Shown piece by piece: positions 2,176 to 16,725 of a DNA stretch of 20,235 nucleotides. The notes under the pieces were generated by a model. The model saw nothing but the letters and a program-made list of their open reading frames with translations. It was not told the DNA's origin and ran no database searches. Within the stretch, counting starts at the first letter, position 1. Each line of letters starts with the position of its first letter. The DNA comes from a virus, in IMG/VR virus record IMGVR_UViG_3300002446_000025; one strand, written 5' to 3'. Made by a program: the position numbers and the translations under genes.

Positions 2176-2382
2176 GTGAGGCAAGTGAGTACAAACCATC
2201 CGCGCAAGGTCGCGCAGGCCACATTGACCGGCGACCTTGCAAAAACATTCGCCGACGTCGCCTCCGCCGTCGGGATCAGTGAGGCGGACCTGGTGCGCCA
2301 GTCCATCCGAGCGTATCTCGGCAAGGAGTATGTCGACTACCTCCGGCTGAAACCAGGGGTTAACGACCGAAAAAAAGAGTGA
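2176..2382 (+). CDS. Ribbon-helix-helix (CopG/MetJ-like) transcription regulator
   Basis: Strand-helix-G(I)S-helix pattern VAQATLTGDLAKTFADVASAVGISEADLVRQSIRAYL; first gene after a promoter. Alternative start GTG 2185. Confidence 0.7.
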   Translation: MRQVSTNHPRKVAQATLTGDLAKTFADVASAVGISEADLVRQSIRAYLGKEYVDYLRLKPGVNDRKKE

Positions 2383-2387
2383 AACAC

Positions 2388-2732
2388 ATGTCAACCAACA
2401 AATGTCTGAATGGCAGCCCCTGCGGATCCGCACCGACCAGGACGCAGGAACCCCGGGCCGCCACAGTTGTATCGACCTCAGAGAATATAATGGATCGCAC
2501 GCGCGCGAATGCTCCTGCGAACGACGACCTACTGCACGGCCGGGCGCGGCTCTGCCGCTCCTGTGACTGCGAGACGACCTCCGGCGACGGGGTCTGCCCG
2601 GCATGTGCCGAGGCGCTGCGCGAGGAGCGGGCCGCTGCCCTGGCTGAGCGGTGCCGGGTGCACCGGGTGCGGTATGTCGAGGATCTCCCGGTGCGGGTGT
2701 ATGAGGATCTGCGGCGGGGGCGGACCGAATGA
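2388..2732 (+). CDS. Zinc-finger hypothetical protein
   Basis: CRSC...CPAC; overlaps the Bet start by ATGA. Start could be GTG 2379. Confidence 0.7.
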   Translation: MSTNKCLNGSPCGSAPTRTQEPRAATVVSTSENIMDRTRANAPANDDLLHGRARLCRSCDCETTSGDGVCPACAEALREERAAALAERCRVHRVRYVEDLPVRVYEDLRRGRTE

Positions 2733-3409
2733 CCGACCTCCCCGCAACCACAAACGCCGGGGGCATCGTCCCGGCGAACTACGATCAGCAGCAGATCCAA
2801 CTCGTCCGGGATATGTGCGCTCGGGACTGCACCGATAACGAGTTCCTCCTCTTGATGCAACTCGCGAAGACCTACCAGTTGGACCCGTTCGCAAAACAGA
2901 TCTGGGCGGTCAAGTACGGGAACAACCCCGCCGCGATCTTCGCTGGCCGGGATGGGTTCTTGGCCATCGCGCACAGGAGCGGGAAATTCGACGGTATGGA
3001 GTCCGGGACCCGGCAGGACGAGGGCGGGGACCTCATCGGATGGTGCAAGGTCTACCGTAAGGACATGGCGCACCCCTTCGAGGTCGCGGTCCCGCTCGCG
3101 GAATACAGCACCGGGAAGAACCTCTGGCAGTCCAAGCCGAAGACCATGATCATCAAGGTCGCCGAGAGCCACGCGCTCCGGAGAGCATTCGGCATCAGCG
3201 GCCTCTACTGCCCCGAAGAGATCGACACTGGCGACCGCCCGGAGCCGCGCGTCGTCACCGAGATCCCCGCCGCGACCCCGACGACCTGCGAGGTCTGCGG
3301 GATCCCGGTGCCTGCGGAGATCCGGGACAAGACCCGGCCGCACACACCGAGGACCCTGTGTGTCGAGTGTTTCGGCAAGTGGTGGAACGAGCAGCAGGGG
3401 GCGGCGTAG
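2729..3409 (+). CDS. bet: Bet/RecT-family single-strand annealing recombinase with C-terminal zinc finger
   Basis: Motifs LDPFAKQIWAVKY, GRDGFLAIAHRSGKFDG, W.SKPKTMIIKVAESHALRRAFG and GLY.PEE; C-terminal CEVC...CVEC. Confidence 0.9.
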   Translation: MTDLPATTNAGGIVPANYDQQQIQLVRDMCARDCTDNEFLLLMQLAKTYQLDPFAKQIWAVKYGNNPAAIFAGRDGFLAIAHRSGKFDGMESGTRQDEGGDLIGWCKVYRKDMAHPFEVAVPLAEYSTGKNLWQSKPKTMIIKVAESHALRRAFGISGLYCPEEIDTGDRPEPRVVTEIPAATPTTCEVCGIPVPAEIRDKTRPHTPRTLCVECFGKWWNEQQGAA

Positions 3410-3616
3410 ATGGCTTGCTATTACCCGCCCGGGTATCATCTGGCGGCCACCCGGTGTTGCGGGACCTGCGACAAAGGTTACTCTAACGTCGACGGCAGTA
3501 GGCATTGCAGCTGGCATTGCGGCATGCGTGTGGGACGAGGATATGTTTGCGACGACTGGACGCCGGAGGATAGCGTTACAGAGCACCCGCAGGACCTCGT
3601 CGAGGAGGGCCTCTGA
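3410..3616 (+). CDS. Cys-rich microprotein, 68 aa
   Basis: CCGTC...HCSWHC...C; abuts both neighbouring genes. Confidence 0.7.
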   Translation: MACYYPPGYHLAATRCCGTCDKGYSNVDGSRHCSWHCGMRVGRGYVCDDWTPEDSVTEHPQDLVEEGL

Positions 3617-4263: not shown

Positions 4264-4778
4264 CCTTTTCCCCGAGCGAGGTCATCCTCGGTGCATCGGT
4301 GCCGATGGCGAACGGCAGCAGCATAACCTTCTCCGTCTCCGGTCACATCGAGACCGAACGGGACTGTGACGACGCCGTCGTGATATTCTCCCGGAAACTC
4401 CTCAAATACACTAACAGCGCGTCCGACGAGGACCGGCTCACGGTGCGGCAGGTAGTCGCCTCGATCACCTCGACGCCGCTCAACAAGGTGCCGGACGTCG
4501 GGACCCCCGCCCCGGAGCCTGCGCGGCCAACCCACGTAGAATACCGCTGCACCGCGCACGACGATCGTATCCCTCCAGCAGCGACGACCTGTCCGACCGT
4601 GATCCCAGAAAACCTGGTGTACCTACGGCGACGCTGCACCACTATCCCAGAGCCGGCAGCCCCCGGAGAAGAGGTCTGTGAGAAGTGCGGAGGACCCGTG
4701 CCCGGACAGCAGGCGAAGCTCTCGCAGCTCTTCCAGGGCAAAACGTTGTGTAAGGGATGCATGGGAGGAGCAGAATGA
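4260..4778 (+). CDS. Hypothetical protein with C-terminal zinc finger
   Basis: CEKCGGPVP...KTLCKGC after a Pro-rich linker. Confidence 0.75.
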   Translation: MTFSPSEVILGASVPMANGSSITFSVSGHIETERDCDDAVVIFSRKLLKYTNSASDEDRLTVRQVVASITSTPLNKVPDVGTPAPEPARPTHVEYRCTAHDDRIPPAATTCPTVIPENLVYLRRRCTTIPEPAAPGEEVCEKCGGPVPGQQAKLSQLFQGKTLCKGCMGGAE

Positions 4779-5788
4779 TCGTCATCGGCAACCCCGAAGA
4801 GATCCGGGCGCTCGTCGCCCCCTCAGTGGGGTCGAAGCCCATCCTCCTCCGGGCGCAGGAGAGCGGGCCGTGTGTCTACTACGATCCCGGGCTGAGAGAT
4901 CACTGCACCTATCCCTATGACCGGGCCTGCCCTCACCTGGACGACAAGGCGATCCTCTGCCCGATTAAGGATGCCTGCTCCGCGATGCGGGCGACAAGCC
5001 TCCTCCGAGAGGCCTGCGAGGCTGAGCAGGAGGAGCAGGACCTGGACATGGCGGCCGAGGCGGCCGACCTGGTTCCCCGGTCAGACTTCGTGCTCGTCCC
5101 CCGGGATCCTCAGGGTTCCGGCGGCGACGCAGAGGTGCCAGAGTTCCCGGCCATCGAGCCAGAGGAGACGCCGGTCTACAAGACCAAGGGCCGGGTCCCG
5201 GAACACATCCAGATGTGGACCGCAGGGGAAAACGCGGTGCTGGCCGGCGCGATGTCCCGACAGGAGGCGATCGCACTCTTCCGCGAACGGTTCCCGGACA
5301 CGACCCGGACGGATGGCGCGATCAGGCGGCAGTGGTATGAGGTCCGACCCCTCGCGACGGCGCCGCCGGACGGGCGACGGGGCTCGTGGACTCCTGAAGA
5401 GGATGCAGTCCTGCTCCAGGAGACCACCCCCGCCAGCGCGGTCACGGCGTATCAGGCGAAGTTCGGCGACGCGAAGCGGACCTACGCGGCGTTGTCAAGC
5501 CGATACTACCGGATTCGGCACACGGCCCCCGTCGGCGATAGAGATCCGGTCACGCAGACCGTGGAGCCCGCCGATGAGTCCCGGGGAGGGGAGACAGCCT
5601 CCCACCCGTGGTTCGGGATGCGGGTTCGGGTCCTGGATCCGCCCGACCTCGCCGAGTGCACGGGGACGGTGGTGCGATACGGCCTCGGCCCGGAGGAGCT
5701 GCTCGTCGCCCTGGACGAGTCCCCGGATCGGGTCTGGCTCCCTCCGGAGTCGCTGCTCCTGATCGGCGCCGGGAGGGGGTCCTCGTGA
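4775..5788 (+). CDS. Putative DNA-binding protein: Cys-rich N-terminus, two Myb/SANT-like repeats, C-terminal SH3/KOW-like domain
   Basis: WTAGENAVL...RTDGAIRRQWYEVR and WTPEEDAVL...RTYAALSSRYYRIR; C-terminal GMRVRVL...TGTVVRY...LLVALD...WLPPESL. Confidence 0.6.
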   Translation: MIVIGNPEEIRALVAPSVGSKPILLRAQESGPCVYYDPGLRDHCTYPYDRACPHLDDKAILCPIKDACSAMRATSLLREACEAEQEEQDLDMAAEAADLVPRSDFVLVPRDPQGSGGDAEVPEFPAIEPEETPVYKTKGRVPEHIQMWTAGENAVLAGAMSRQEAIALFRERFPDTTRTDGAIRRQWYEVRPLATAPPDGRRGSWTPEEDAVLLQETTPASAVTAYQAKFGDAKRTYAALSSRYYRIRHTAPVGDRDPVTQTVEPADESRGGETASHPWFGMRVRVLDPPDLAECTGTVVRYGLGPEELLVALDESPDRVWLPPESLLLIGAGRGSS

Positions 5789-6763: not shown

Positions 6764-7152
6764 ACTGCGGGCAAGCCACTCCCGGCGAGGGCGCGGTCCG
6801 GCTGGCGATCTGGGACGGGACCATCGAATATGTGTTCGCGCTGCCGATCCCGGACGTCTCTGCCCTGCTCCAGGAGCGAGCGGAGTCGATCCCTATCGGG
6901 CGGCAGTTCGGGCTCCTCTCCAACGAGAACTATGGCCGGGCGCGGCTATCCAACCTCGACGCCGATGGAGCGCGGAAGGGCGTGACCCTCTGGGCGCCGT
7001 GCTTCCCGGGCAGAGTGTTCTCGGTCTCGCGTGTCGGGCTCGCCGGGGTTGCGAGGGCTGTCACCGGAGACGCGGGCGACCACTGGCGCGAGGCCGTGAT
7101 CTCGGAGATGCTGCCGGACCCGGTGCCCGCGTGGGTGGGGGTGCGGGCGTGA
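6754..7152 (+). CDS. Hypothetical protein, probable ACG (non-canonical or mutated) start
   Basis: GAGGTGA (6743-6749) is followed 4 nt later by in-frame ACG; the ORF ends in a GTGA overlap. Confidence 0.55.
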
Positions 7153-7287
7153 CGCTGACGCACCTCTCGCTCTTCTCCGGCATCGGCGGGCTTGACCTGG
7201 CCGCAGAGTGGGCGGGGTTCCGCACCGTCGGGCAGGTGGAGATGGCTGATTACCCTTTTCGGGTGCTGCGGCGGCGGTGCTGGCATG
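7149..7287 (+). pseudogene. N-terminal relic of a C5-cytosine DNA methyltransferase
   Basis: [36 protein letters not shown] matches the SAM-binding motif I/II region. Similarity stops after ~45 aa and there is no catalytic FPCQ motif. Confidence 0.75.
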
Positions 7288-7479
7288 ACGCCGCACATCT
7301 CCCCGCCCCCCTACTGCCTCGGCTGCCCGCGAGCAACCTACGACGACCGGCACGGGAAGGGGTGGCAATGGTATTGCAGGCAGTGGTCCCCGACCGGGAT
7401 CCTGTGCACGAACGTCGCGGTGCTCAAGGACTGCTGCCCTGCCGTGGCGCGATGGGTGGAGCGGAGGGGGGCGGTATGA
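7285..7479 (+). CDS. Cys/Trp-rich microprotein, 64 aa
   Basis: ATG 7285: [15 protein letters not shown]...WYC...C...CC; ATGA overlap with the methyltransferase start. Confidence 0.7.
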
Positions 7480-8654
7480 GGCACACGATCCTGAATGGAG
7501 ATGTTATCGACTGCCTCCGGTCGCTGCCGGATTGCTCGGTGCAATGCGCCGTCACGTCGCCGCCGTACTGGGGCCTGCGTGACTACGGCGTCGAGGGGCA
7601 GATCGGGCTGGAACCGACCCCGGGCGAGTACGTCGAGAAGATGATCGAGGTGTTCCGCGAGGTTAAGCGGGTGCTGCGCGACGACGGCACGCTCTGGCTG
7701 AATCTCGGGGACAGTTACGCGAGCGCATGGGCGTGTGGGCGGAGGAACGTAGTAGGCAACGGATCGATGGAGAATGGCAAGCGAGACTCTCGCCCGAACC
7801 GCGTCTCTGGTGACATAAAGGAAAAGGATATGGTCGGCATCCCTTGGCGCGTGGCATTCGCGCTACAAGCGGACGGCTGGTATCTGCGCTCGGACATCAT
7901 CTGGAGTAAGCCGAACCCGATGCCGGAGAGCGTGACCGACCGCCCGACCAAGAGCCATGAGTATGTGTTCCTGCTCTCGAAGTCAGCGCGGTATTTCTAC
8001 GATGCTGACGCGGTGCGAGAGGGGTGCGGAGTATGGAAAGGCACCGATTTCCTCCCGACGTCTGACAAGGATCTCGCTGGCAACGAGAAGACCTCAGCGA
8101 CCAATGGATCCCTTAACAACCGGACGGATGCTGTGAGAATGGGGCGCAACCGCCGCACCGTATGGGAGATTGCGACGCAACCGACCCCGGAGGCGCACTT
8201 CGCCACCTTCCCCGAGGCCCTCGTCGAGCCGTGTATTAAGGCCGGGACGAGCGAGCGCGGGTGCTGCCCGATGTGCGGCGCACCGTGGCGGCGAGTTGTA
8301 GAGCGAGAGGTCACAGGTATCCCCCATTATAACTCGAAGTCAAACGGGCGGACAGATTGTCAGTATGGTGAGTGTGCAACAACGACACTCAGAGCAACCG
8401 CGCGAGATACGAAAACCGTTTGCTGGCAACCCTCCTGCACCTGCGGCGACAACCCGGTGCCGTGCGTCGTGCTGGATCCGTTCGGCGGATCCGGCACTGT
8501 GGCGAAGGTCGCCCGGGATCTCGGGCGGTCGAGTATCTCCTGTGAACTCAATCCCGAGTACGTGAAGATCGCAAAGAAGCGCCTGCGGATCGGCGAGCAA
8601 CTCGACTCCGGCGTCTGTGAGTACGTCGTTACAAACCTTCTGACGGAGGGGTAA
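7476..8654 (+). CDS. Amino (N4-C/N6-A) DNA methyltransferase, beta-type motif order, with zinc-ribbon insertion
   Basis: VTSPPYW catalytic motif; GTLWLNLGD; [10 protein letters not shown]; [14 protein letters not shown]; CPMC...CTC insert; [13 protein letters not shown] motif. Confidence 0.92.
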
Positions 8655-8657
8655 TTT

Positions 8658-10871
8658 TTGACAGACATAGTTCTCGCGGTCCCGTGCGGGGCCGCATCAT
8701 TTCAGCGAGCAAAAGAGCAGGCAAGCCCGGAGGTAGCAGCAAGGGTGCGCGAGTGGCCTGCGGTGACCGTCTTCATCGGCAGCGTCGCATATGTGCCGCT
8801 CCGGTCGGACTGGATGCCGCCAAAAGAGCGCAGGACAGCGGATGGCGTCGAGGTGCTGCTCGCGGGCCGGTGGCCTGCGGAGGTGCAGGCGGCAATCGAT
8901 GGAGGCAACGCCATCCGGATCGGGGCGAGCCTGATGGAAACGCTATGGAAGGAAATTTTTGGTACATCAACATATGGTTTATCGGAGAAATGTGATGGTG
9001 AACAGAGCAAAGCGCCCGCAGTGGCGCAAGAGCCCCTTCGGTTACCGGACGCGGTTCCGGGCCCGGTTCGGGATCGGTCCAGTGTGGCTCCACTGCAGGA
9101 TTCTCAAGATGTCCATAACAAAGGATCTCCTACTGCTGCGGAGTCAGCGGGCGATCTGGAGAGCACGGCGTCGGCGGGGGATGCCCACTCTCTCGTAACC
9201 TCCCCCCGCCTCCAGCACGTCGATGGGTGGAAATGGAGCACCGTCATTTCCGAGATCCGAGCATGGGCGCAGTATTACCCCGAACCCATCCCGGACGACA
9301 ACACTCTCACCGAGGCCGAAGCTAAAATGCTCCTGAAGACGATCCTCCAGCACCCCGCCGTGATCGCGGCAGAGGAGCAGCACGAGGACGAAGGAGCAGC
9401 GCGGCGGGCCGAGTATCGCGACGCCCGGGTGATCCAGTACGCGATCCCGGTGGGCGTGGCATTGCCCGACCCGACGCCGCCGATGATCGGGCAGGAGTTC
9501 AGTTGCACCGACGACGGCAACGGGGATCGGCTCGTGGCGCAGTATAAGGACGCGATCCGGTACTGCAAGACGTTCGACGGCTGGTTTATCTGGAACGGGC
9601 AGCGGTGGGAGCGCGACGAGACCTGCCGGATGCTCGCGTTAGCCAGGCGAGTTGCAAGGACGATCTACATCGAGGCATCGACCGCAGGCGACGACCGGCG
9701 GGAAAAAGTCGGTAAATGGGCGCTGGCGTCGGGGATGCTGGCGCGGCTCAAGGCAATGACGACCTGCGCCTGCCCTGCCGTGGCCGTGACGCCGGATGCG
9801 TTCGACGCACACCCGACCCTGTTAAACTGCCAGAACGGGACGCTTGAACTTGATACCCTGATATTCCGGGCGGCACGGCGCGAGGACTTGTTAACCAAGT
9901 GTTGTGGGGTCGATTACGATCCGACGGCAGCATGCCCGCGCTGGCTGGCGCACCTGGACCTGATCTTCGGGGGCGACGTTGAGGTCATCGGCGGGTTTCA
10001 GCAGATGGCTGGATACAGCCTTCTGGACGGGAACCCGGAGCAGGTGATGTTTATCCTGCTCGGGAGGGGCAAGAACGGCAAGAGCGTGACGCTGCGGGTG
10101 CTCTCCGAGGTGCTCGGAGACTACGCGGTGAACATTGCCGCCGAGTCCCTGATGGTGAAGCGGAATGACACGATCCGCTCCGACCTCGCGCGGCTTATGG
10201 GTGCCCGCTTGGTCACCTCCGCAGAAGGCGGCGAGGGTGCAGCACTTGACGAGGGTGCGGTCAAGCAGTTGACCGGATTTGACGACAAAATCACCGTCGC
10301 CCGGAAATATGAAAACGAGTTCGAATTCACCCCGAGCGCGAAAATCTGGTTTGCCACGAACCACGCCCCGAAGATACGCGGGACGGATGACGGCATCTGG
10401 CGCCGGATCTGGTTGATCCCCTTCGAGGTGCAGATCGCCGAGGAGCGGCGCGACCCGCAGATCACCGAGAAACTCCTCCAGGAGAAGCAAGGGATCTTAA
10501 ACTGGATGCTTGACGGGCTCCGGCAGTATCACGCCCAGGGGCACCGGCTCCAGCCTGCGGCGAAGATCGTTGCAGCGACGCGAGCGTATCGGCGGGAGAG
10601 TGATGTGTTCGGGAGGTTCCTGGCCGACGAGATGGTGTTCGACCCGCGCGGCTCCCTTGACCGGGCAGCCCTGTACCGGATCTATACTGGGTGGTGCCAG
10701 GAAGAGGGGGAGATGCCGGTGGCAGCCCGGACGATAGCCAAGTACCTCCGGGAGCGGCAGATTCTAGACGCCAAGCGGGGGGGTGCGCGGTGCTGGATCG
10801 GGATCAGACTGAAAGACACGATGGAGGCGGAGAGAGATGCGGCAGCAGGTTCGACACAGGCAGGTCTGTGA
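8658..10871 (+). CDS. D5/P4-type SF3 helicase (D5_N + ATPase + C-terminal winged helix) with unrecognised N-terminus
   Basis: TTG start after GGAGG. D5_N region TDDGNGDRL...W.IWNGQRW; LLNCQNGTLEL; Walker A GRGKNGKS; WFATNHAPKIRGTDDGIWRRI.LIPF. Confidence 0.9.
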   Translation: MTDIVLAVPCGAASFQRAKEQASPEVAARVREWPAVTVFIGSVAYVPLRSDWMPPKERRTADGVEVLLAGRWPAEVQAAIDGGNAIRIGASLMETLWKEIFGTSTYGLSEKCDGEQSKAPAVAQEPLRLPDAVPGPVRDRSSVAPLQDSQDVHNKGSPTAAESAGDLESTASAGDAHSLVTSPRLQHVDGWKWSTVISEIRAWAQYYPEPIPDDNTLTEAEAKMLLKTILQHPAVIAAEEQHEDEGAARRAEYRDARVIQYAIPVGVALPDPTPPMIGQEFSCTDDGNGDRLVAQYKDAIRYCKTFDGWFIWNGQRWERDETCRMLALARRVARTIYIEASTAGDDRREKVGKWALASGMLARLKAMTTCACPAVAVTPDAFDAHPTLLNCQNGTLELDTLIFRAARREDLLTKCCGVDYDPTAACPRWLAHLDLIFGGDVEVIGGFQQMAGYSLLDGNPEQVMFILLGRGKNGKSVTLRVLSEVLGDYAVNIAAESLMVKRNDTIRSDLARLMGARLVTSAEGGEGAALDEGAVKQLTGFDDKITVARKYENEFEFTPSAKIWFATNHAPKIRGTDDGIWRRIWLIPFEVQIAEERRDPQITEKLLQEKQGILNWMLDGLRQYHAQGHRLQPAAKIVAATRAYRRESDVFGRFLADEMVFDPRGSLDRAALYRIYTGWCQEEGEMPVAARTIAKYLRERQILDAKRGGARCWIGIRLKDTMEAERDAAAGSTQAGL

Positions 10872-11809: not shown

Positions 11810-12177
11810 CCCCCGCCGGCAACATCCGCCTGGACGCTCGCAGCGACAACCGGGGCGGGCTCCGCGTGACAATCGAGGACGTCGAGCATATCATCACGCT
11901 CAGAAGCACACAATGCCTTTTTGTCGGCAATGAATGCGGGATAGCAACTACGTATGACCCTGACCCCGGCCCCTTGCTCTACGGGGCACCACGGCGGCGC
12001 ACCGGGCATATCATCCTGAGCCGCGACGACGGCGACGAGATCCCGCACCTGATGATCACGGTCTACCCGGATCGCACCTACCTCGCCCTGACGAGTGAGG
12101 TCGCGGCGGTGTGGGGCGGGACCCGGGATATCTGCAAGGTAGTTAGTGTTAAAGAACGCGAGGTAGTGTATACATGA
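11806..12177 (+). CDS. Hypothetical protein with internal two-fold repeat
   Basis: ATGA coupling at both ends; pattern resembles 5785-6171. Confidence 0.75.
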   Translation: MTPAGNIRLDARSDNRGGLRVTIEDVEHIITLRSTQCLFVGNECGIATTYDPDPGPLLYGAPRRRTGHIILSRDDGDEIPHLMITVYPDRTYLALTSEVAAVWGGTRDICKVVSVKEREVVYT

Positions 12178-13544
12178 CCCAGATCACCGAAAAGCGCGAA
12201 CTCAAGAACGTCCCGCTCGGGGACCTCATCCCCTATGCCCGCAACCCGCGCAAGAACGCCCCGGCGGTGCAGCAGGTCGCGGCGTCACTCAAGGAATACG
12301 GGCTCGTCAAGAACTCGATCGTCGTCGACGAAGATATGACGCTCATCACCGGGCATACGACCCTGAAGGCGATGCAGTCTCTCGGGTGGACCGTGGCCCC
12401 GGAGGTCACGCAGGTCTTCGGGCTGACGGCGGCGCAGAAAAAAGCGTATCGCATCGCCGACAACCGGCTCGGAGAACTGGCGGAGTGGGACGCCGACCTG
12501 CTCGCGCTGGAGTTTGACGATCTCAAGGAACTCGACTTCAACATCGACCTGACCGGGTTTGATGACGCAGCGCTCGCCGAGATGTACCCCCCAGAGAAAC
12601 TGGAGGTGGTGGAGGACGACTACGAGCCGCCGGTCGAGATCGAGATTAGCATCCAGCGCGGCGACCTCTTCCGGCTCGGGCGGCACCGCCTGCTCTGCGG
12701 TGACTCGACGAGCGCCGAGGATGTGGCGAGGCTGATGGGCGGGGCGAAGGCAGATATTTGCTTCACGTCGCCGCCGTATAATGCCGGCAGTCTGAACATT
12801 AAAGGGCAGGTGGCGACAGGTGCGAAATACCTCGAAACTAGCGACGACCTAAATGACGACGAATATGTCGGGTTTTTAGACTCGGTTGTATCAAACGCCT
12901 TGATCGCCGCAGATGACGCCATGATAAACATCGGGCTCGTGGAAGGAAACAAACGCGCAATAATTCGCATTTTGAACCTATATATCGACAATTTTAAAGA
13001 CATCGTTTACTGGAAAAAATCAACCTGCGCCCCACATATTCAACCAGGGGTGATTAACAATCAGATCGAGTTTATCTTATGTTTCGGCGACGGGAAGCGC
13101 CGGTTTAAATCGGCGCAGTTCCACCAAGGCACATATTGGAACGTGATCGAAGGTCCGCCCGCATCAAGCAACGAATACGCGAAGATCCATAAAGCGACGT
13201 TCCCTGTATATCTCCCTGCAAACATCATCGAGAACTTCTGCCCACCCGAGGGCGAGGTGTTTGACCCCTTCCTCGGGTCCGGCACCACCCTCGTCGCCTG
13301 CGAGCAACTCGGCCGCACCTGTTACGGCATGGAGATCAGCCCGCAGTATTGTCAGGTGATCGTCGACCGCTGGGAGAAACTCACCGGGCAGAAGGCGGAG
13401 CGGGTCAATGACCCGGACGAATGTCGGTGCGGCGGCAAAGTCCTCCGTCCGCCGCATCAGGACAACCGAGAAGACGACCAAGGCGCTCGACCACCGGAAG
13501 AAAGGGTTTACATGCACGCAGATCGACGGGGGCGCCTCGGGTGA
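12174..13544 (+). CDS. ParB-like N-terminal domain fused to an amino DNA methyltransferase
   Basis: LIPYARNPRKN...IVVDED..LITGHT..KA...AYRIADNRL.E.A.WD; LGRHRLLCGDST; FTSPPYN; HKATFP; DPFLGSGTTL.ACEQLGR.CYGMEI.P.Y. Confidence 0.92.
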   Translation: MTQITEKRELKNVPLGDLIPYARNPRKNAPAVQQVAASLKEYGLVKNSIVVDEDMTLITGHTTLKAMQSLGWTVAPEVTQVFGLTAAQKKAYRIADNRLGELAEWDADLLALEFDDLKELDFNIDLTGFDDAALAEMYPPEKLEVVEDDYEPPVEIEISIQRGDLFRLGRHRLLCGDSTSAEDVARLMGGAKADICFTSPPYNAGSLNIKGQVATGAKYLETSDDLNDDEYVGFLDSVVSNALIAADDAMINIGLVEGNKRAIIRILNLYIDNFKDIVYWKKSTCAPHIQPGVINNQIEFILCFGDGKRRFKSAQFHQGTYWNVIEGPPASSNEYAKIHKATFPVYLPANIIENFCPPEGEVFDPFLGSGTTLVACEQLGRTCYGMEISPQYCQVIVDRWEKLTGQKAERVNDPDECRCGGKVLRPPHQDNREDDQGARPPEERVYMHADRRGRLG

Positions 13545-14036: not shown

Positions 14037-14555
14037 ATGGCCGGCAGACCGAAAACCTGCGTATACGATCCCGACAAGCATCCCGTCCTCGCAGCACAAG
14101 CAGCCCGGGAAGGGCTCGTCAATAAAGAGATCTTCGCCCGCCTCGGGATCGGCCACACCACGTTTTACATTTGGCGCAGAGAACACCCGGAATTTTGTGA
14201 GGCGCTGAAAGAGGGGAAGGAGGTCGTCGACGCGAAGGTCGAAAAGGCGCTCCTCACCCGGGCACTCGGCTACGAATATGATGAGGTTGAGGAGACACAA
14301 GACATCAAACAGACCGAGTCTGGGGAGAAGGTCGCCCACAAGCGCCGCATCGTGCGGAAGAAGGCAGTCGTGCCGGACGTGCAGGCGCAGCGGCTCTGGC
14401 TCCTCAATCGCCGCCCGGAGCAGTGGCGCGATAAGCAGGAGATCGAGCACAGTGGGAAGGATGGCGGACCACTCGAGATCTACACGATGAGCGATGAAGA
14501 AATCGAACGGCGAGCGAGGGAGATTCTTGCCAGGCGAGACGGAAATACTGACTGA
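14037..14555 (+). CDS. terS: Terminase small subunit
   Basis: GRPK...HTH (KEIFARLGIGHTTFYIW)...HPEFCEALKEGKEVVDAKVEKALLTRALGY; directly upstream of TerL. Confidence 0.85.
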   Translation: MAGRPKTCVYDPDKHPVLAAQAAREGLVNKEIFARLGIGHTTFYIWRREHPEFCEALKEGKEVVDAKVEKALLTRALGYEYDEVEETQDIKQTESGEKVAHKRRIVRKKAVVPDVQAQRLWLLNRRPEQWRDKQEIEHSGKDGGPLEIYTMSDEEIERRAREILARRDGNTD

Positions 14556-16725
14556 GTATGCGACCCGATGGTCGTTTCTCGCCCGCCCAGGGCAGATCCC
14601 TCCAAAAGACGCCCCGTGGTTCTGCTACTTGATGCGGTCCGGGCGTGGGGGTGGCAAGACGCGCAGTGGGTCCGAGTGGGTGCTCGACCGCGTGCGGCAG
14701 GGGTATCGGATGATTGCACTTGTTGGCAAGACAGCCGCCGATGTCCGCGATACGATGGTTGAGATCGGGGACTCGGCGATCATGCAGGTCGCTCGCCCCC
14801 ACGAGCGCCCGATCTACGAGCCGTCAAAACGGCGCCTTACGTTCCCCTCCGGCGCGATCGCCATCGGCTACAACGGCGACGAGCCGGACCAGCTCCGCGG
14901 ACCGCAGCACGACAGCGCCTGGGTGGACGAGCTTGCGAAGTTCCAGTACCCAGAAGAGACGTGGAGCAACCTTCTTTTCGGGCTTCGTCTCGGCGCGAAC
15001 CCTCAGGTCTTCGTTACTACGACCCCCCGCCCGATTCCGCTGATAAAGCGCCTGGTAGCAGCTCCCGATACAATCGACGTGCGGTTCTCGACGTTTGAAA
15101 ATGCCGCAAACCTCTCTCCGATCTTCCTGGAGAAGATCCGTGCCGAATATGAAGGTACTCGCCTCGGCCGGCAGGAACTCGAGGGCGAGATCCTCGATGA
15201 CAACCCCTACGCCCTCTGGCAGAGGAGCACGATCGAGCATCTCCGGGTCCCGAAAGCCCCTCCCCTGATTCGCATCGTCGTTGGCGTCGACCCGGCCGTC
15301 ACCGGGAGCGAGACCAGCGACGAGACCGGGATCGTCGTCGCCGGCACCGCAGCGGACGGCACGATCTACGTCCTCGGCGACTACTCCCTCCGTGGCCCCC
15401 CGATCGACTGGGCCCGGGCGGTTGAACGTGCCTATCGCACCCATGCCGCGGACCGCGTGATTGGAGAAGTAAACAATGGCGGGGACCTGGTCGAGGTCAA
15501 CCTCCGGACGGTCGACCCGACGATCTCGTTTACGGCAGTCCACGCCAGCCGCGGGAAACTCATCCGAGCAGAACCGGTGGCCTCGCTCTACGAGCAGGGG
15601 AAGGTGCACCACGTCGGCACCTATCCTGCGCTCGAGGATCAGATGTGTGAATGGGTTCCAGGAGACAAGTCCCCAGATCGGTGTCTCGCGGCGGGCACGA
15701 CAATCGACACCATCTCCGGCCCAACGCCCATCGAAGAGGTGTGTTTGGGCGATCTCGTCCTCACTCGCAGAGGATACAAAGAGGTGATTGCGTCAGGGAT
15801 GACTGATGATGCAGCCCCCTGTATCACTATCACCTGCTCGGACGGAAAACAACTTACTGGAACGCCAAACCACCAGGTCTTCACTAAAAACAGAGGATTT
15901 ATTAGGATGGACGCCCTAGTATGGGATGATGCATTATGGACAGAGAAACCCTCGTCTACAATGGGATCACCTATGCGAGGTATCCAGGCTCAACAAGTAG
16001 GTCCCGAGCCAGATATTTCTATCCTTTCGTCACAAGATACAAGGACGGATCTCGGAGAAAAGCCCTTCACCAACAGATCTGGATTGATGCAAATGGCCCA
16101 ATTCCGGCAGGCCATCATATCCACCACATTGACGGAAACCCGTCGAACAACACCCTCTCAAATCTTCGGTGCGTCCCGGGTCGGCACCACACCCGTATCC
16201 ATCTTGCAGGGGTGTGCAGCGATGAGCACAGAGCGCACCTTGACCGGGTGCGCCCTCTCACAAAAGAGTGGCACGCCTCCGAAGAGGGGCACGATTGGCA
16301 CAAACAACACGGGCTGGCCTCGTGGGAGGGGCGAGAGCCAGAATACAACAAGGTCTGCAAAGAGTGCGGAACCCCGTTTAAATCGTTCTTTGAGCGAGCG
16401 CAGTTCTGCTCTCGACAGTGTATCAACCGACACAATGAGAGATCCCGCCGAGATTATGAAGGGCGCACTTGCCTTATATGCGGAAGATCATTCAACGTCA
16501 AAAAATCCAAGAAACAACCAACATGTTCCCGTACATGTGGTGCAGAAATGCGCCGCAGGAACCGGGCCCGTTTTTAATTTGAGCGTAAAAGACGCCCACG
16601 AATTTTATGCAAACGGCATCCTGGTGCATAACTGTGACGCCCTGGTCTGGGCAGTATCCGAACTATCACAGCGAACGCCCGGCGCCCGCGCCCTGATCGG
16701 CGGCGGCACCACGAGGAATTGGTGA
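14494..16725 (+). CDS. terL: Terminase large subunit precursor containing an intein
   Basis: Walker A GRGGGKTR, Walker B AWVDE, VTTTP coupling motif, nuclease motif VVGVDPA, and C-terminal SPDR|intein|CDALVWA. True start may be TTG 14527. Confidence 0.95.
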   Translation: MKKSNGERGRFLPGETEILTEYATRWSFLARPGQIPPKDAPWFCYLMRSGRGGGKTRSGSEWVLDRVRQGYRMIALVGKTAADVRDTMVEIGDSAIMQVARPHERPIYEPSKRRLTFPSGAIAIGYNGDEPDQLRGPQHDSAWVDELAKFQYPEETWSNLLFGLRLGANPQVFVTTTPRPIPLIKRLVAAPDTIDVRFSTFENAANLSPIFLEKIRAEYEGTRLGRQELEGEILDDNPYALWQRSTIEHLRVPKAPPLIRIVVGVDPAVTGSETSDETGIVVAGTAADGTIYVLGDYSLRGPPIDWARAVERAYRTHAADRVIGEVNNGGDLVEVNLRTVDPTISFTAVHASRGKLIRAEPVASLYEQGKVHHVGTYPALEDQMCEWVPGDKSPDRCLAAGTTIDTISGPTPIEEVCLGDLVLTRRGYKEVIASGMTDDAAPCITITCSDGKQLTGTPNHQVFTKNRGFIRMDALVWDDALWTEKPSSTMGSPMRGIQAQQVGPEPDISILSSQDTRTDLGEKPFTNRSGLMQMAQFRQAIISTTLTETRRTTPSQIFGASRVGTTPVSILQGCAAMSTERTLTGCALSQKSGTPPKRGTIGTNNTGWPRGRGESQNTTRSAKSAEPRLNRSLSERSSALDSVSTDTMRDPAEIMKGALALYAEDHSTSKNPRNNQHVPVHVVQKCAAGTGPVFNLSVKDAHEFYANGILVHNCDALVWAVSELSQRTPGARALIGGGTTRNW
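15682..16632 (+). mobile_element. Intein, 317 aa, in the TerL nuclease domain
   Basis: Block A CLAAGTTIDTISGPTPIEEV; block B TPNH (15862-15873); blocks F/G VFNLSVKDAHEFYANGILVHN; +1 residue Cys. Confidence 0.95.
15936..16577 (+). CDS. HNH homing endonuclease with two C-terminal zinc-binding repeats, nested in the -1 frame of the intein
   Basis: LHQQIWIDANGPIPAGHHIHHIDGNPSNNTLSNLRCVPGRHHTRIH (HNH_3-like); CKEC...FCSRQC and CLIC...TCSRTC. Confidence 0.92.
   Translation: MDRETLVYNGITYARYPGSTSRSRARYFYPFVTRYKDGSRRKALHQQIWIDANGPIPAGHHIHHIDGNPSNNTLSNLRCVPGRHHTRIHLAGVCSDEHRAHLDRVRPLTKEWHASEEGHDWHKQHGLASWEGREPEYNKVCKECGTPFKSFFERAQFCSRQCINRHNERSRRDYEGRTCLICGRSFNVKKSKKQPTCSRTCGAEMRRRNRARF

Follow-up and report, generated by a model that had tools for sequence, protein, structure and literature searches.

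The IMG/VR virus record IMGVR_UViG_3300002446_000025 was analysed over its full length of 20,235 nucleotides (nt), hereafter the window, which encodes a large terminase gene (terL) interrupted by an intein and, nested within that intein in another reading frame of the same strand, an HNH endonuclease-like gene (Table 1). The terL open reading frame (ORF) occupies 14494-16725 (743 amino acids, aa), and its product (TerL) matches the Pfam families Terminase_6N, Terminase_6C, Hint_2 and Intein_splicing. The intein (15682-16632, 317 aa) splits terL at SPDR|C-DALVWA, an in-frame insertion into a conserved motif at which the methionine of the SPDR-M-DALVWA of intein-free homologs is replaced; such empty alleles are found in homologs of ~420 aa that share 69-76% identity with the N-extein. 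A first-pass annotation of this DNA had described canonical splicing motifs interrupting SPDR-x-DALVWA, a spacer lacking any nuclease motif in the intein frame, and an intact 213-aa HNH gene that fills this spacer nearly exactly in the -1 frame, and each of these components was recovered as set out below.

Table 1. Components of the interrupted terL gene and the gene nested within it, by position in the window (AF2, AlphaFold2; pLDDT, predicted local distance difference test)
Feature	Position	Strand	Basis and remarks
terL N-extein: ATPase domain plus the greater part of the RNase H-like nuclease domain, up to ...GDKSPDR	14494..15681	+	Terminase_6N E 1e-21, Terminase_6C E 2e-10
Intein N-terminal splicing domain, residues 1-90	15682..15951	+	Hint_2 and Intein_splicing; AF2 pLDDT 97-98; Foldseek matches to mini- and split inteins
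Possible HNH start signals: A/T-rich TTTATTA at 15898-15904 (32-38 nt 5' of the ATG), weak purine-rich GGGATGATG at 15923-15931, in-frame TGA at 15927-29	15898..15935	+	read from the sequence
Putative HNH homing-endonuclease gene, 213 aa plus TAA, -1 frame relative to terL	15936..16577	+	HNH_3; N-terminal HNH_3, helical middle, two C-terminal Cys4 zinc ribbons
Intein-frame filler, about residues 91-280, S/T/R/G-rich, stop-free, not conserved as protein	15952..16521	+	no Pfam match; AF2 pLDDT ~45
Intein C-terminal splicing domain, blocks F and G, ending H-N	16522..16632	+	Intein_splicing; AF2 pLDDT 93-98
terL C-extein: +1 Cys, then DALVWAVSEL... (nuclease-motif Asp), stop codon included	16633..16725	+	alignment to intein-free SPDR-M-DALVWA homologs

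The class 1 intein nucleophile C1 (15682-84) is present and is invariant among 52 aligned homologs, as are H64 of the block B TxxH motif (T61-P-N-H64, 15862-15873, with T61 at least 90% conserved) and N317 of the terminal H316-N317 pair (16627-16632), which is followed by the +1 Cys at 16633-35. The same type of C-extein junction was also found in the relatives L001, L081 and L105. Searched by itself against Pfam, the intein matches Hint_2 at 29.6 bits, just over the cut-off of 28.4, and Intein_splicing at 34.9 bits, just under the cut-off of 35.8. The AF2 model of the intein frame adopts a HINT fold formed by residues 1-90 and 281-318 (pLDDT 97-98), with strands at residues 284-316, and retrieves the gp41-1, DnaB, RecA and NrdJ-1 inteins, both mini- and split inteins, in Foldseek at E 4e-7 to 1e-4. 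Two of these, gp41-1 and NrdJ-1, are reportedly metagenomic split inteins from the work of Dassa et al. of 2009. Split inteins have their host gene divided between two ORFs, and the terL frame of the window is unbroken. The element is therefore predicted from its motifs and modelled fold to be a contiguous class 1 mini-intein able to splice. Between the two splicing domains the intein frame gave no Pfam match, and residues 91-280 are predicted to be disordered (no secondary structure in the AF2 model), consistent with the absence of a nuclease motif from this frame. The case suggests that mini-inteins can tolerate a disordered insert of 190 residues.

The nested ORF matches HNH_3 (PF13392) at 58.7 bits against a cut-off of 24.8 (E 4e-16). 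Its ATG lies within TTA TGG at the end of the N-terminal splicing domain, two codons past an in-frame TGA, and its TAA (16575-77) lies within TTT AAT, so that the gene overlaps the C-terminal splicing domain by ~18 codons. In the family alignment H63, H64, N72 and N76 are invariant and H85 and H89 at least 90% conserved; the first of the two zinc-ribbon-like Cys4 units has invariant cysteines (C141/C144/C158/C162), those of the second (C179/C182/C197/C201) are at least 90% conserved, and both units are folded confidently in the AF2 model, whose mean pLDDT is 93.7. A profile search with the HNH protein matched I-HmuI (1u3e) at E 3.8e-4, which we rate as better evidence than the structural comparison, as a Foldseek search of the model against the PDB returned nothing at E <= 0.001 and I-HmuI as the best match at E 0.085 (probability 0.92). 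The nested product is most likely an HNH_3 or I-HmuI-type homing endonuclease, for which cleavage and homing activity are predicted. Homologous HNH ORFs begin with ATG in 102 of 107 unique cases, at a median of four codons past a stop, and a Shine-Dalgarno core precedes 51% of these 107 starts as compared to 11% in the background. We infer that the window HNH is translated separately from its own ATG, with the weak candidate signals listed in Table 1 possibly contributing to initiation.

Comparison of the window with its closest relative, locus L161 (78.5% DNA identity), indicates which of the two frames is selected as protein. Over the HNH ORF, 30, 29 and 79 differences fall at codon positions 1, 2 and 3 of the HNH frame, a periodicity of the kind seen in the terL frame of the upstream flank (220 nt; 12, 15 and 36) and the downstream flank (148 nt; 16, 18 and 29). 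Within the overlap, 76% of the amino acids are identical when read in the HNH frame, compared with 55% for the intein frame and 56% for the third, non-coding one. The intein frame is open in both sequences, and the third frame has 9 and 14 stops in the pair; in the window the intein region contains 14 stops in the third forward frame and 4 to 16 in the reverse frames. Purifying selection thus acts on the HNH frame only and the filler in the intein frame merely avoids stops, the pattern of constraint that the first-pass annotation had expected from a frame-by-frame comparison. Only the first ~5 and the last ~18 codons of the HNH gene are truly dual-coding; the last ~18 are also the first ~18 of the intein C domain, and both products are structured there.

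The first-pass annotation had put the chance of so long a stop-free intein frame near 1e-4, a figure that considers base composition only and that did not hold. We also obtained 1.2e-4 from base composition, and 2e-4 with uniform synonymous codons. When the HNH protein and its codon usage were taken into account, either by permuting the codons of the window HNH or by drawing synonymous codons with the usage of the ORF itself or of the host, no stop arose in the intein frame in 10-14% of trials. Codons ending in TA or TG number just 6 of the 213 in the window HNH. The open frame of the single window is consequently not significant, and the significance comes from the family. We fetched 160 loci with an HNH protein alignment, giving 139 unique HNH ORFs; because they were fetched by the HNH protein, the sample is blind to the state of the intein frame. 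These were classified into HNHs inside a contiguous intein with the host frame at +1 offset and no intein-frame stop (115 unique loci), HNHs flanked by split-intein halves (7), free-standing HNHs (16) and an unclear case (1), to which a mini-intein lacking the HNH region can be added (P0098, below).

No intein-frame stop occurs in any of the 115 embedded loci, and stops are present in the 7 split forms. Among the 107 unique loci with both intein halves located, 0 stops compare with 3.6 expected under codon permutation (median P 0.01; summed log10 P ~-224), whereas the 32 loci not scored as embedded have 5.7 stops observed versus 6.8 expected. Codon choice in the HNH ORFs follows the same pattern: the TA- or TG-ending share of Leu, Ile and Val codons is 28%, versus 47.5% in the terL extein of the same genome (paired p 2e-15), and a TA- or TG-ending codon is followed by a stop-creating base in 0 of 788 cases in the HNH ORFs, as compared to 1564 of 4450 (35%) in the exteins. 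Across the family, stops in the intein frame are strongly selected against, which bears out the earlier proposal that the host frame is kept stop-free by selection.

An ordinary in-frame HNH intein, disguised by indel errors or by programmed ribosomal frameshifts, would give a similar appearance, and in-frame HNH inteins are known, as mentioned in a paper that cites them. Logan contigs from four runs belonging to two studies span 15543-16700 without an indel, in one run at ~690x word depth, and records from more than one source contain the same 743-aa protein. The offset is identical in more than 100 independent loci, whose HNH ORFs have an ATG shortly past an in-frame stop as well as a stop of their own, so that two compensating shifts would be required. 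We have rejected assembly error and programmed frameshifting on these grounds and give this explanation a next to negligible probability. As a separate matter, contigs of two runs diverge into unrelated sequence just upstream of window position 15406, and at 15447-15572 one run yields numerous short alternatives that differ widely in depth. Both observations point to a mosaic of strains ~110-275 nt 5' of the intein site, where a recombination or co-conversion boundary may lie.

The embedded loci have a uniform geometry: the HNH starts where the HINT N domain ends, 87.8 +/- 4.4 residues past C1, and the HINT C domain overlaps the HNH end, with the HNH stop a median of 18.3 residues ahead of the end of the intein; the frame offset is constant across more than 100 diverged relatives. 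Among close relatives, five or more terL sites are occupied by the intein-HNH pair, the offset being the same at each, and the pair is also found in the nuclease motif of TerL families as unlike as Terminase_3 and Terminase_6. About 110 of the 120 closest TerL homologs are intein-free, and the G+C content of the intein is 0.48-0.58 against ~0.62 around it. This patchy distribution, the several insertion sites and the low G+C of the intein suggest mobility by homing. Isolated, named phages also have the layout, namely Clostridium phage phiCDHM19 (gp2, L163:443-2842) and Tetrasphaera phage TJE1 (terL, L164:1089-3275), indicating that the arrangement is compatible with a working terminase. In both GenBank records the intein and the complete nested HNH ORF are unannotated and the whole stretch is labelled terminase, and a literature search on TJE1 and an intein found nothing. 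In Acinetobacter phage Highwayman (hit H2) a tblastn match to the HNH falls under a feature labelled simply as the terminase large subunit.

Three close TerL relatives have inteins elsewhere in the gene, at DEL|C of Walker B, HDT|C and EDQM|C (L165:1814-2341, L166:1145-1591 and L167:1208-1894), and an HNH_3 ORF is nested in these inteins too, shifted by the same single base; some of these ORFs are shorter (149-176 aa). Some terL genes contain two inteins (L014:362-2728, L065:128-2713, L139:509-2713 and L120:662-2728), with the HNH-overprinted one near the 3' end; the second intein upstream is of the LAGLIDADG type, or is a second HINT element in the case of L120.

The nested HNH may not be, or not only be, a homing enzyme: it could be a terminase-associated nuclease that aids TerL in cutting or packaging and lies inside terL for the sake of co-expression, an idea also proposed for the nested HNH of brucellaphages (Virol J 2015, PMC4422536). 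In this respect free-standing homologs adjoin terminase genes in the manner of packaging-associated HNH proteins. In L119:1545-3654, L104:1375-3526, L025, L076 and L086 they directly follow a terL that lacks the intein, at a distance of a few dozen codons from the insertion point, in the last three between terL and a confirmed portal gene (L025:788-4974, L076:1580-5732 and L086:1597-5276), and a homolog in Acinetobacter phage BP10 is encoded just upstream of terS and terL. However, a position next to the target gene is equally expected of free-standing homing endonuclease genes, and HNH_3/I-HmuI proteins are of a type typical of homing enzymes. The intein-free majority of the closest TerL homologs has no nested HNH either, so the nuclease is dispensable for this terminase family, and insertion at five or more sites in Terminase_3 and Terminase_6 genes is the pattern of a mobile element. 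We therefore consider a packaging role improbable.

On the evidence of sequence, models and family comparison, the window very probably carries a composite selfish element, a terL mini-intein with a separately read homing gene of the HNH_3/zinc-ribbon type in the -1 frame. According to this reading, the terL frame would be translated straight through to give a TerL precursor in which the HINT halves are tethered by the ~190-residue disordered filler, whose sequence would be irrelevant except that stop codons are barred. The intein would then splice in cis, restoring the nuclease motif as SPDR-C-DALVWA. The HNH protein, translated separately from its ATG at 15936, would cut or nick intein-free terL near the SPDR motif, and repair would copy the whole element into the empty allele (homing).

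Several observations weigh against this account, among them the proximity of free-standing homologs to terminase genes and the chance with which the frame of the window alone would be open, both given above. Stops in the filler of the seven split-intein relatives indicate that contiguity is not strictly required, the HNH start signals 5' of the ATG are weak in the window, and this provirus, itself possibly defective, may hold an inactive copy of the element. The weak start signals and the chance-open frame would also fit an inactive relic, in which the HNH or the intein is dead, the provirus perhaps defective and the frame open by accident. A relic is nonetheless very unlikely given that no catalytic or zinc-binding residue of the HNH and no splice-site residue has been lost, that the differences between the window and L161 fall mostly at HNH third positions with the intein frame open in both, and that the same sequence is found at high depth in several metagenome runs.

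The states of the family form a series around the composite element. In seven relatives, including L066, terL is fractured: an ORF for the N-terminal part of TerL and the N-terminal intein half ends at a stop, the HNH gene follows, and a further ORF overlapping its end encodes the C-terminal intein half and the remainder of TerL. Four of the fractured genes lie at L072:1447-3694, L124:1483-3727, L146:1388-3751 and L145:1385-3742. The partial TerL P0098 (491 aa) has a mini-intein at the identical SPDR|C-DALVWA site without the HNH region, and it retains a remnant of the HNH 3' end (SRDPRNNRCVPVSV, compared to SKNPRNNQHVPVHV in the window), which identifies it as a deletion derivative. In a quick IQ-TREE reconstruction of the HNH family (unrooted, with most deep branches unsupported), free and split forms are interleaved with embedded ones, and the well-supported branches force at least three or four changes of state.

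The first-pass annotation had proposed that a free-standing HNH gene colonised a mini-intein. A separate HNH gene within a mini-intein is indeed what is found, and such an invasion is plausible as one direction of origin, the states being interleaved on the HNH tree. The constant offset and boundaries favour one composite origin followed by escapes and splits. Taken further, there might have been one ancient composite that kept its offset while moving between terminase families and across the bacteria-archaea divide, repeatedly shedding free HNHs and split inteins, with the filler additionally recruited, for example to tune splicing or to couple TerL and HNH synthesis; we regard this wider scenario as doubtful. 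Were the single ancient composite true, the family would be a natural and still-active series of the intermediates proposed in the gain and loss of intein endonucleases.

The out-of-frame placement of an endonuclease within an intein is already known, having been annotated in 2012, described in a paper in 2015 and taken up in preprints of 2025-26. The RefSeq record of Brucella phage Tb (NC_019446, since 2012) lists gp07 as 'terminase large subunit, intein present' and a nested gp08 as 'putative HNH endonuclease', and the nested out-of-frame HNH in the terL intein of the brucellaphages (Tb/Pr, Perisivirus) is stated in print (Virol J 2015, PMC4422536). As in the window, the Tb/Pr terL intein is open through its middle and an ORF for HNH and zinc ribbons (~228 aa) lies in another frame of the same strand. 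However, the Brucella intein is inserted at the ATPase Walker B region rather than at the nuclease motif, the Tb HNH is +1 rather than -1 relative to terL, its zinc ribbons precede the HNH instead of following it, and its host is bacterial whereas that of the window is probably archaeal. Only the short HNH motif aligns between the two proteins (E 1e-4), which together with the differences in site, frame and domain order suggests that the Brucella case is probably of independent origin.

A survey of inteins in PhagesDB actinophages (2025-26 preprint) describes inteins, including terL inteins, with a homing endonuclease in a different frame of the same strand, and its authors propose that a free-standing homing endonuclease invaded the intein and reason that splicing must persist since terL is essential. 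That survey covers PhagesDB actinophages only, and its out-of-frame nuclease is endonuclease VII-like and in 'frame 3', with HNH found only in frame; the family described here combines HNH_3 with zinc ribbons at more than 100 metagenomic viral loci, including a probable archaeal virus. In a cyanobacterial dnaX intein with an out-of-frame LAGLIDADG homing endonuclease and frame-dependent selection (Phillips, DeSimone & Gogarten, bioRxiv 10.64898/2026.09.14.751524), a disordered low-confidence loop in the intein frame likewise overlaps a confidently folded endonuclease in another ORF, but the nuclease type differs, the host gene is cellular and the frame is another. The ShiLan domain (Arsenault et al., 2025, PMC11855218), in which an HNH has been inserted out of frame into a mycobacteriophage methylase, resembles the present case in its hidden alternate-frame HNH ORF and stop-free host frame; splicing domains are absent from it and the inserted stretch presumably stays in the protein, whereas the window ORF is flanked by intein domains. 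The dnaX, ShiLan and actinophage-survey studies come from the same laboratory (bioRxiv 10.64898/2026.09.14.751524; PMC11855218). Fractured genes, whose split-intein halves have a free-standing endonuclease gene between them (Dassa et al., 2009, PMC2677866), have the same components, and the seven split relatives of the window HNH are in that state, whereas the window intein is contiguous; the nuclease of those genes is VSR-like according to a paper that cites the work, and that of the window is HNH_3.

In the searchable literature we found no description of the family with HNH_3 followed by zinc ribbons, of its breadth, or of a probable archaeal virus case. With regard to novelty in an archaeal virus, which the first-pass annotation had left to a literature check, the host context thus stands as apparently unreported, although the layout has been published and the host label derives from metagenome-assembled genome (MAG) bins. 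The sole point added by the window is its probable methanogenic archaeon host. Overprinted genes in inteins join splicing and homing without a protein fusion and so bear on the model of intein origin in which splicing came first and the endonuclease later, and the HNH family presents one element in many natural forms: contiguous, split, reduced to a mini-intein, or free-standing. The family is moreover a clean example of a frame selected for nothing but remaining open. On the practical side, annotation pipelines overlook the nested gene, and several cultured phage records label the whole stretch terminase.

The carrier of the element is a tailed virus or provirus, the window encoding a tailed-virus gene block of two DNA methylases, a D5_N/DUF5906 primase-helicase, the large terminase, a portal protein and a Mu-F-like head protein. 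The nearest TerL relatives (~71% identity) are named after methanogen MAG bins, Methanoregulaceae and Methanospirillum, and a contig scan with the TerL N-extein added relatives with the bin names Methanomassiliicoccaceae (75%) and, as partial matches, Methanobacteriaceae and Methanolobus. On the basis of these bin names, which reflect binning, the host is probably a methanogenic archaeon. The runs that contain the window DNA are hydrocarbon metagenomes. Several large ORFs of the window gave no match in Pfam (422-1642, 2360-3586 on the minus strand, and 4757-5788). The two methylase genes, both of the N6_N4 type, and the primase-helicase gene lie 5' of the packaging genes, at 6999-8654, 8658-10871 and 12174-13544.

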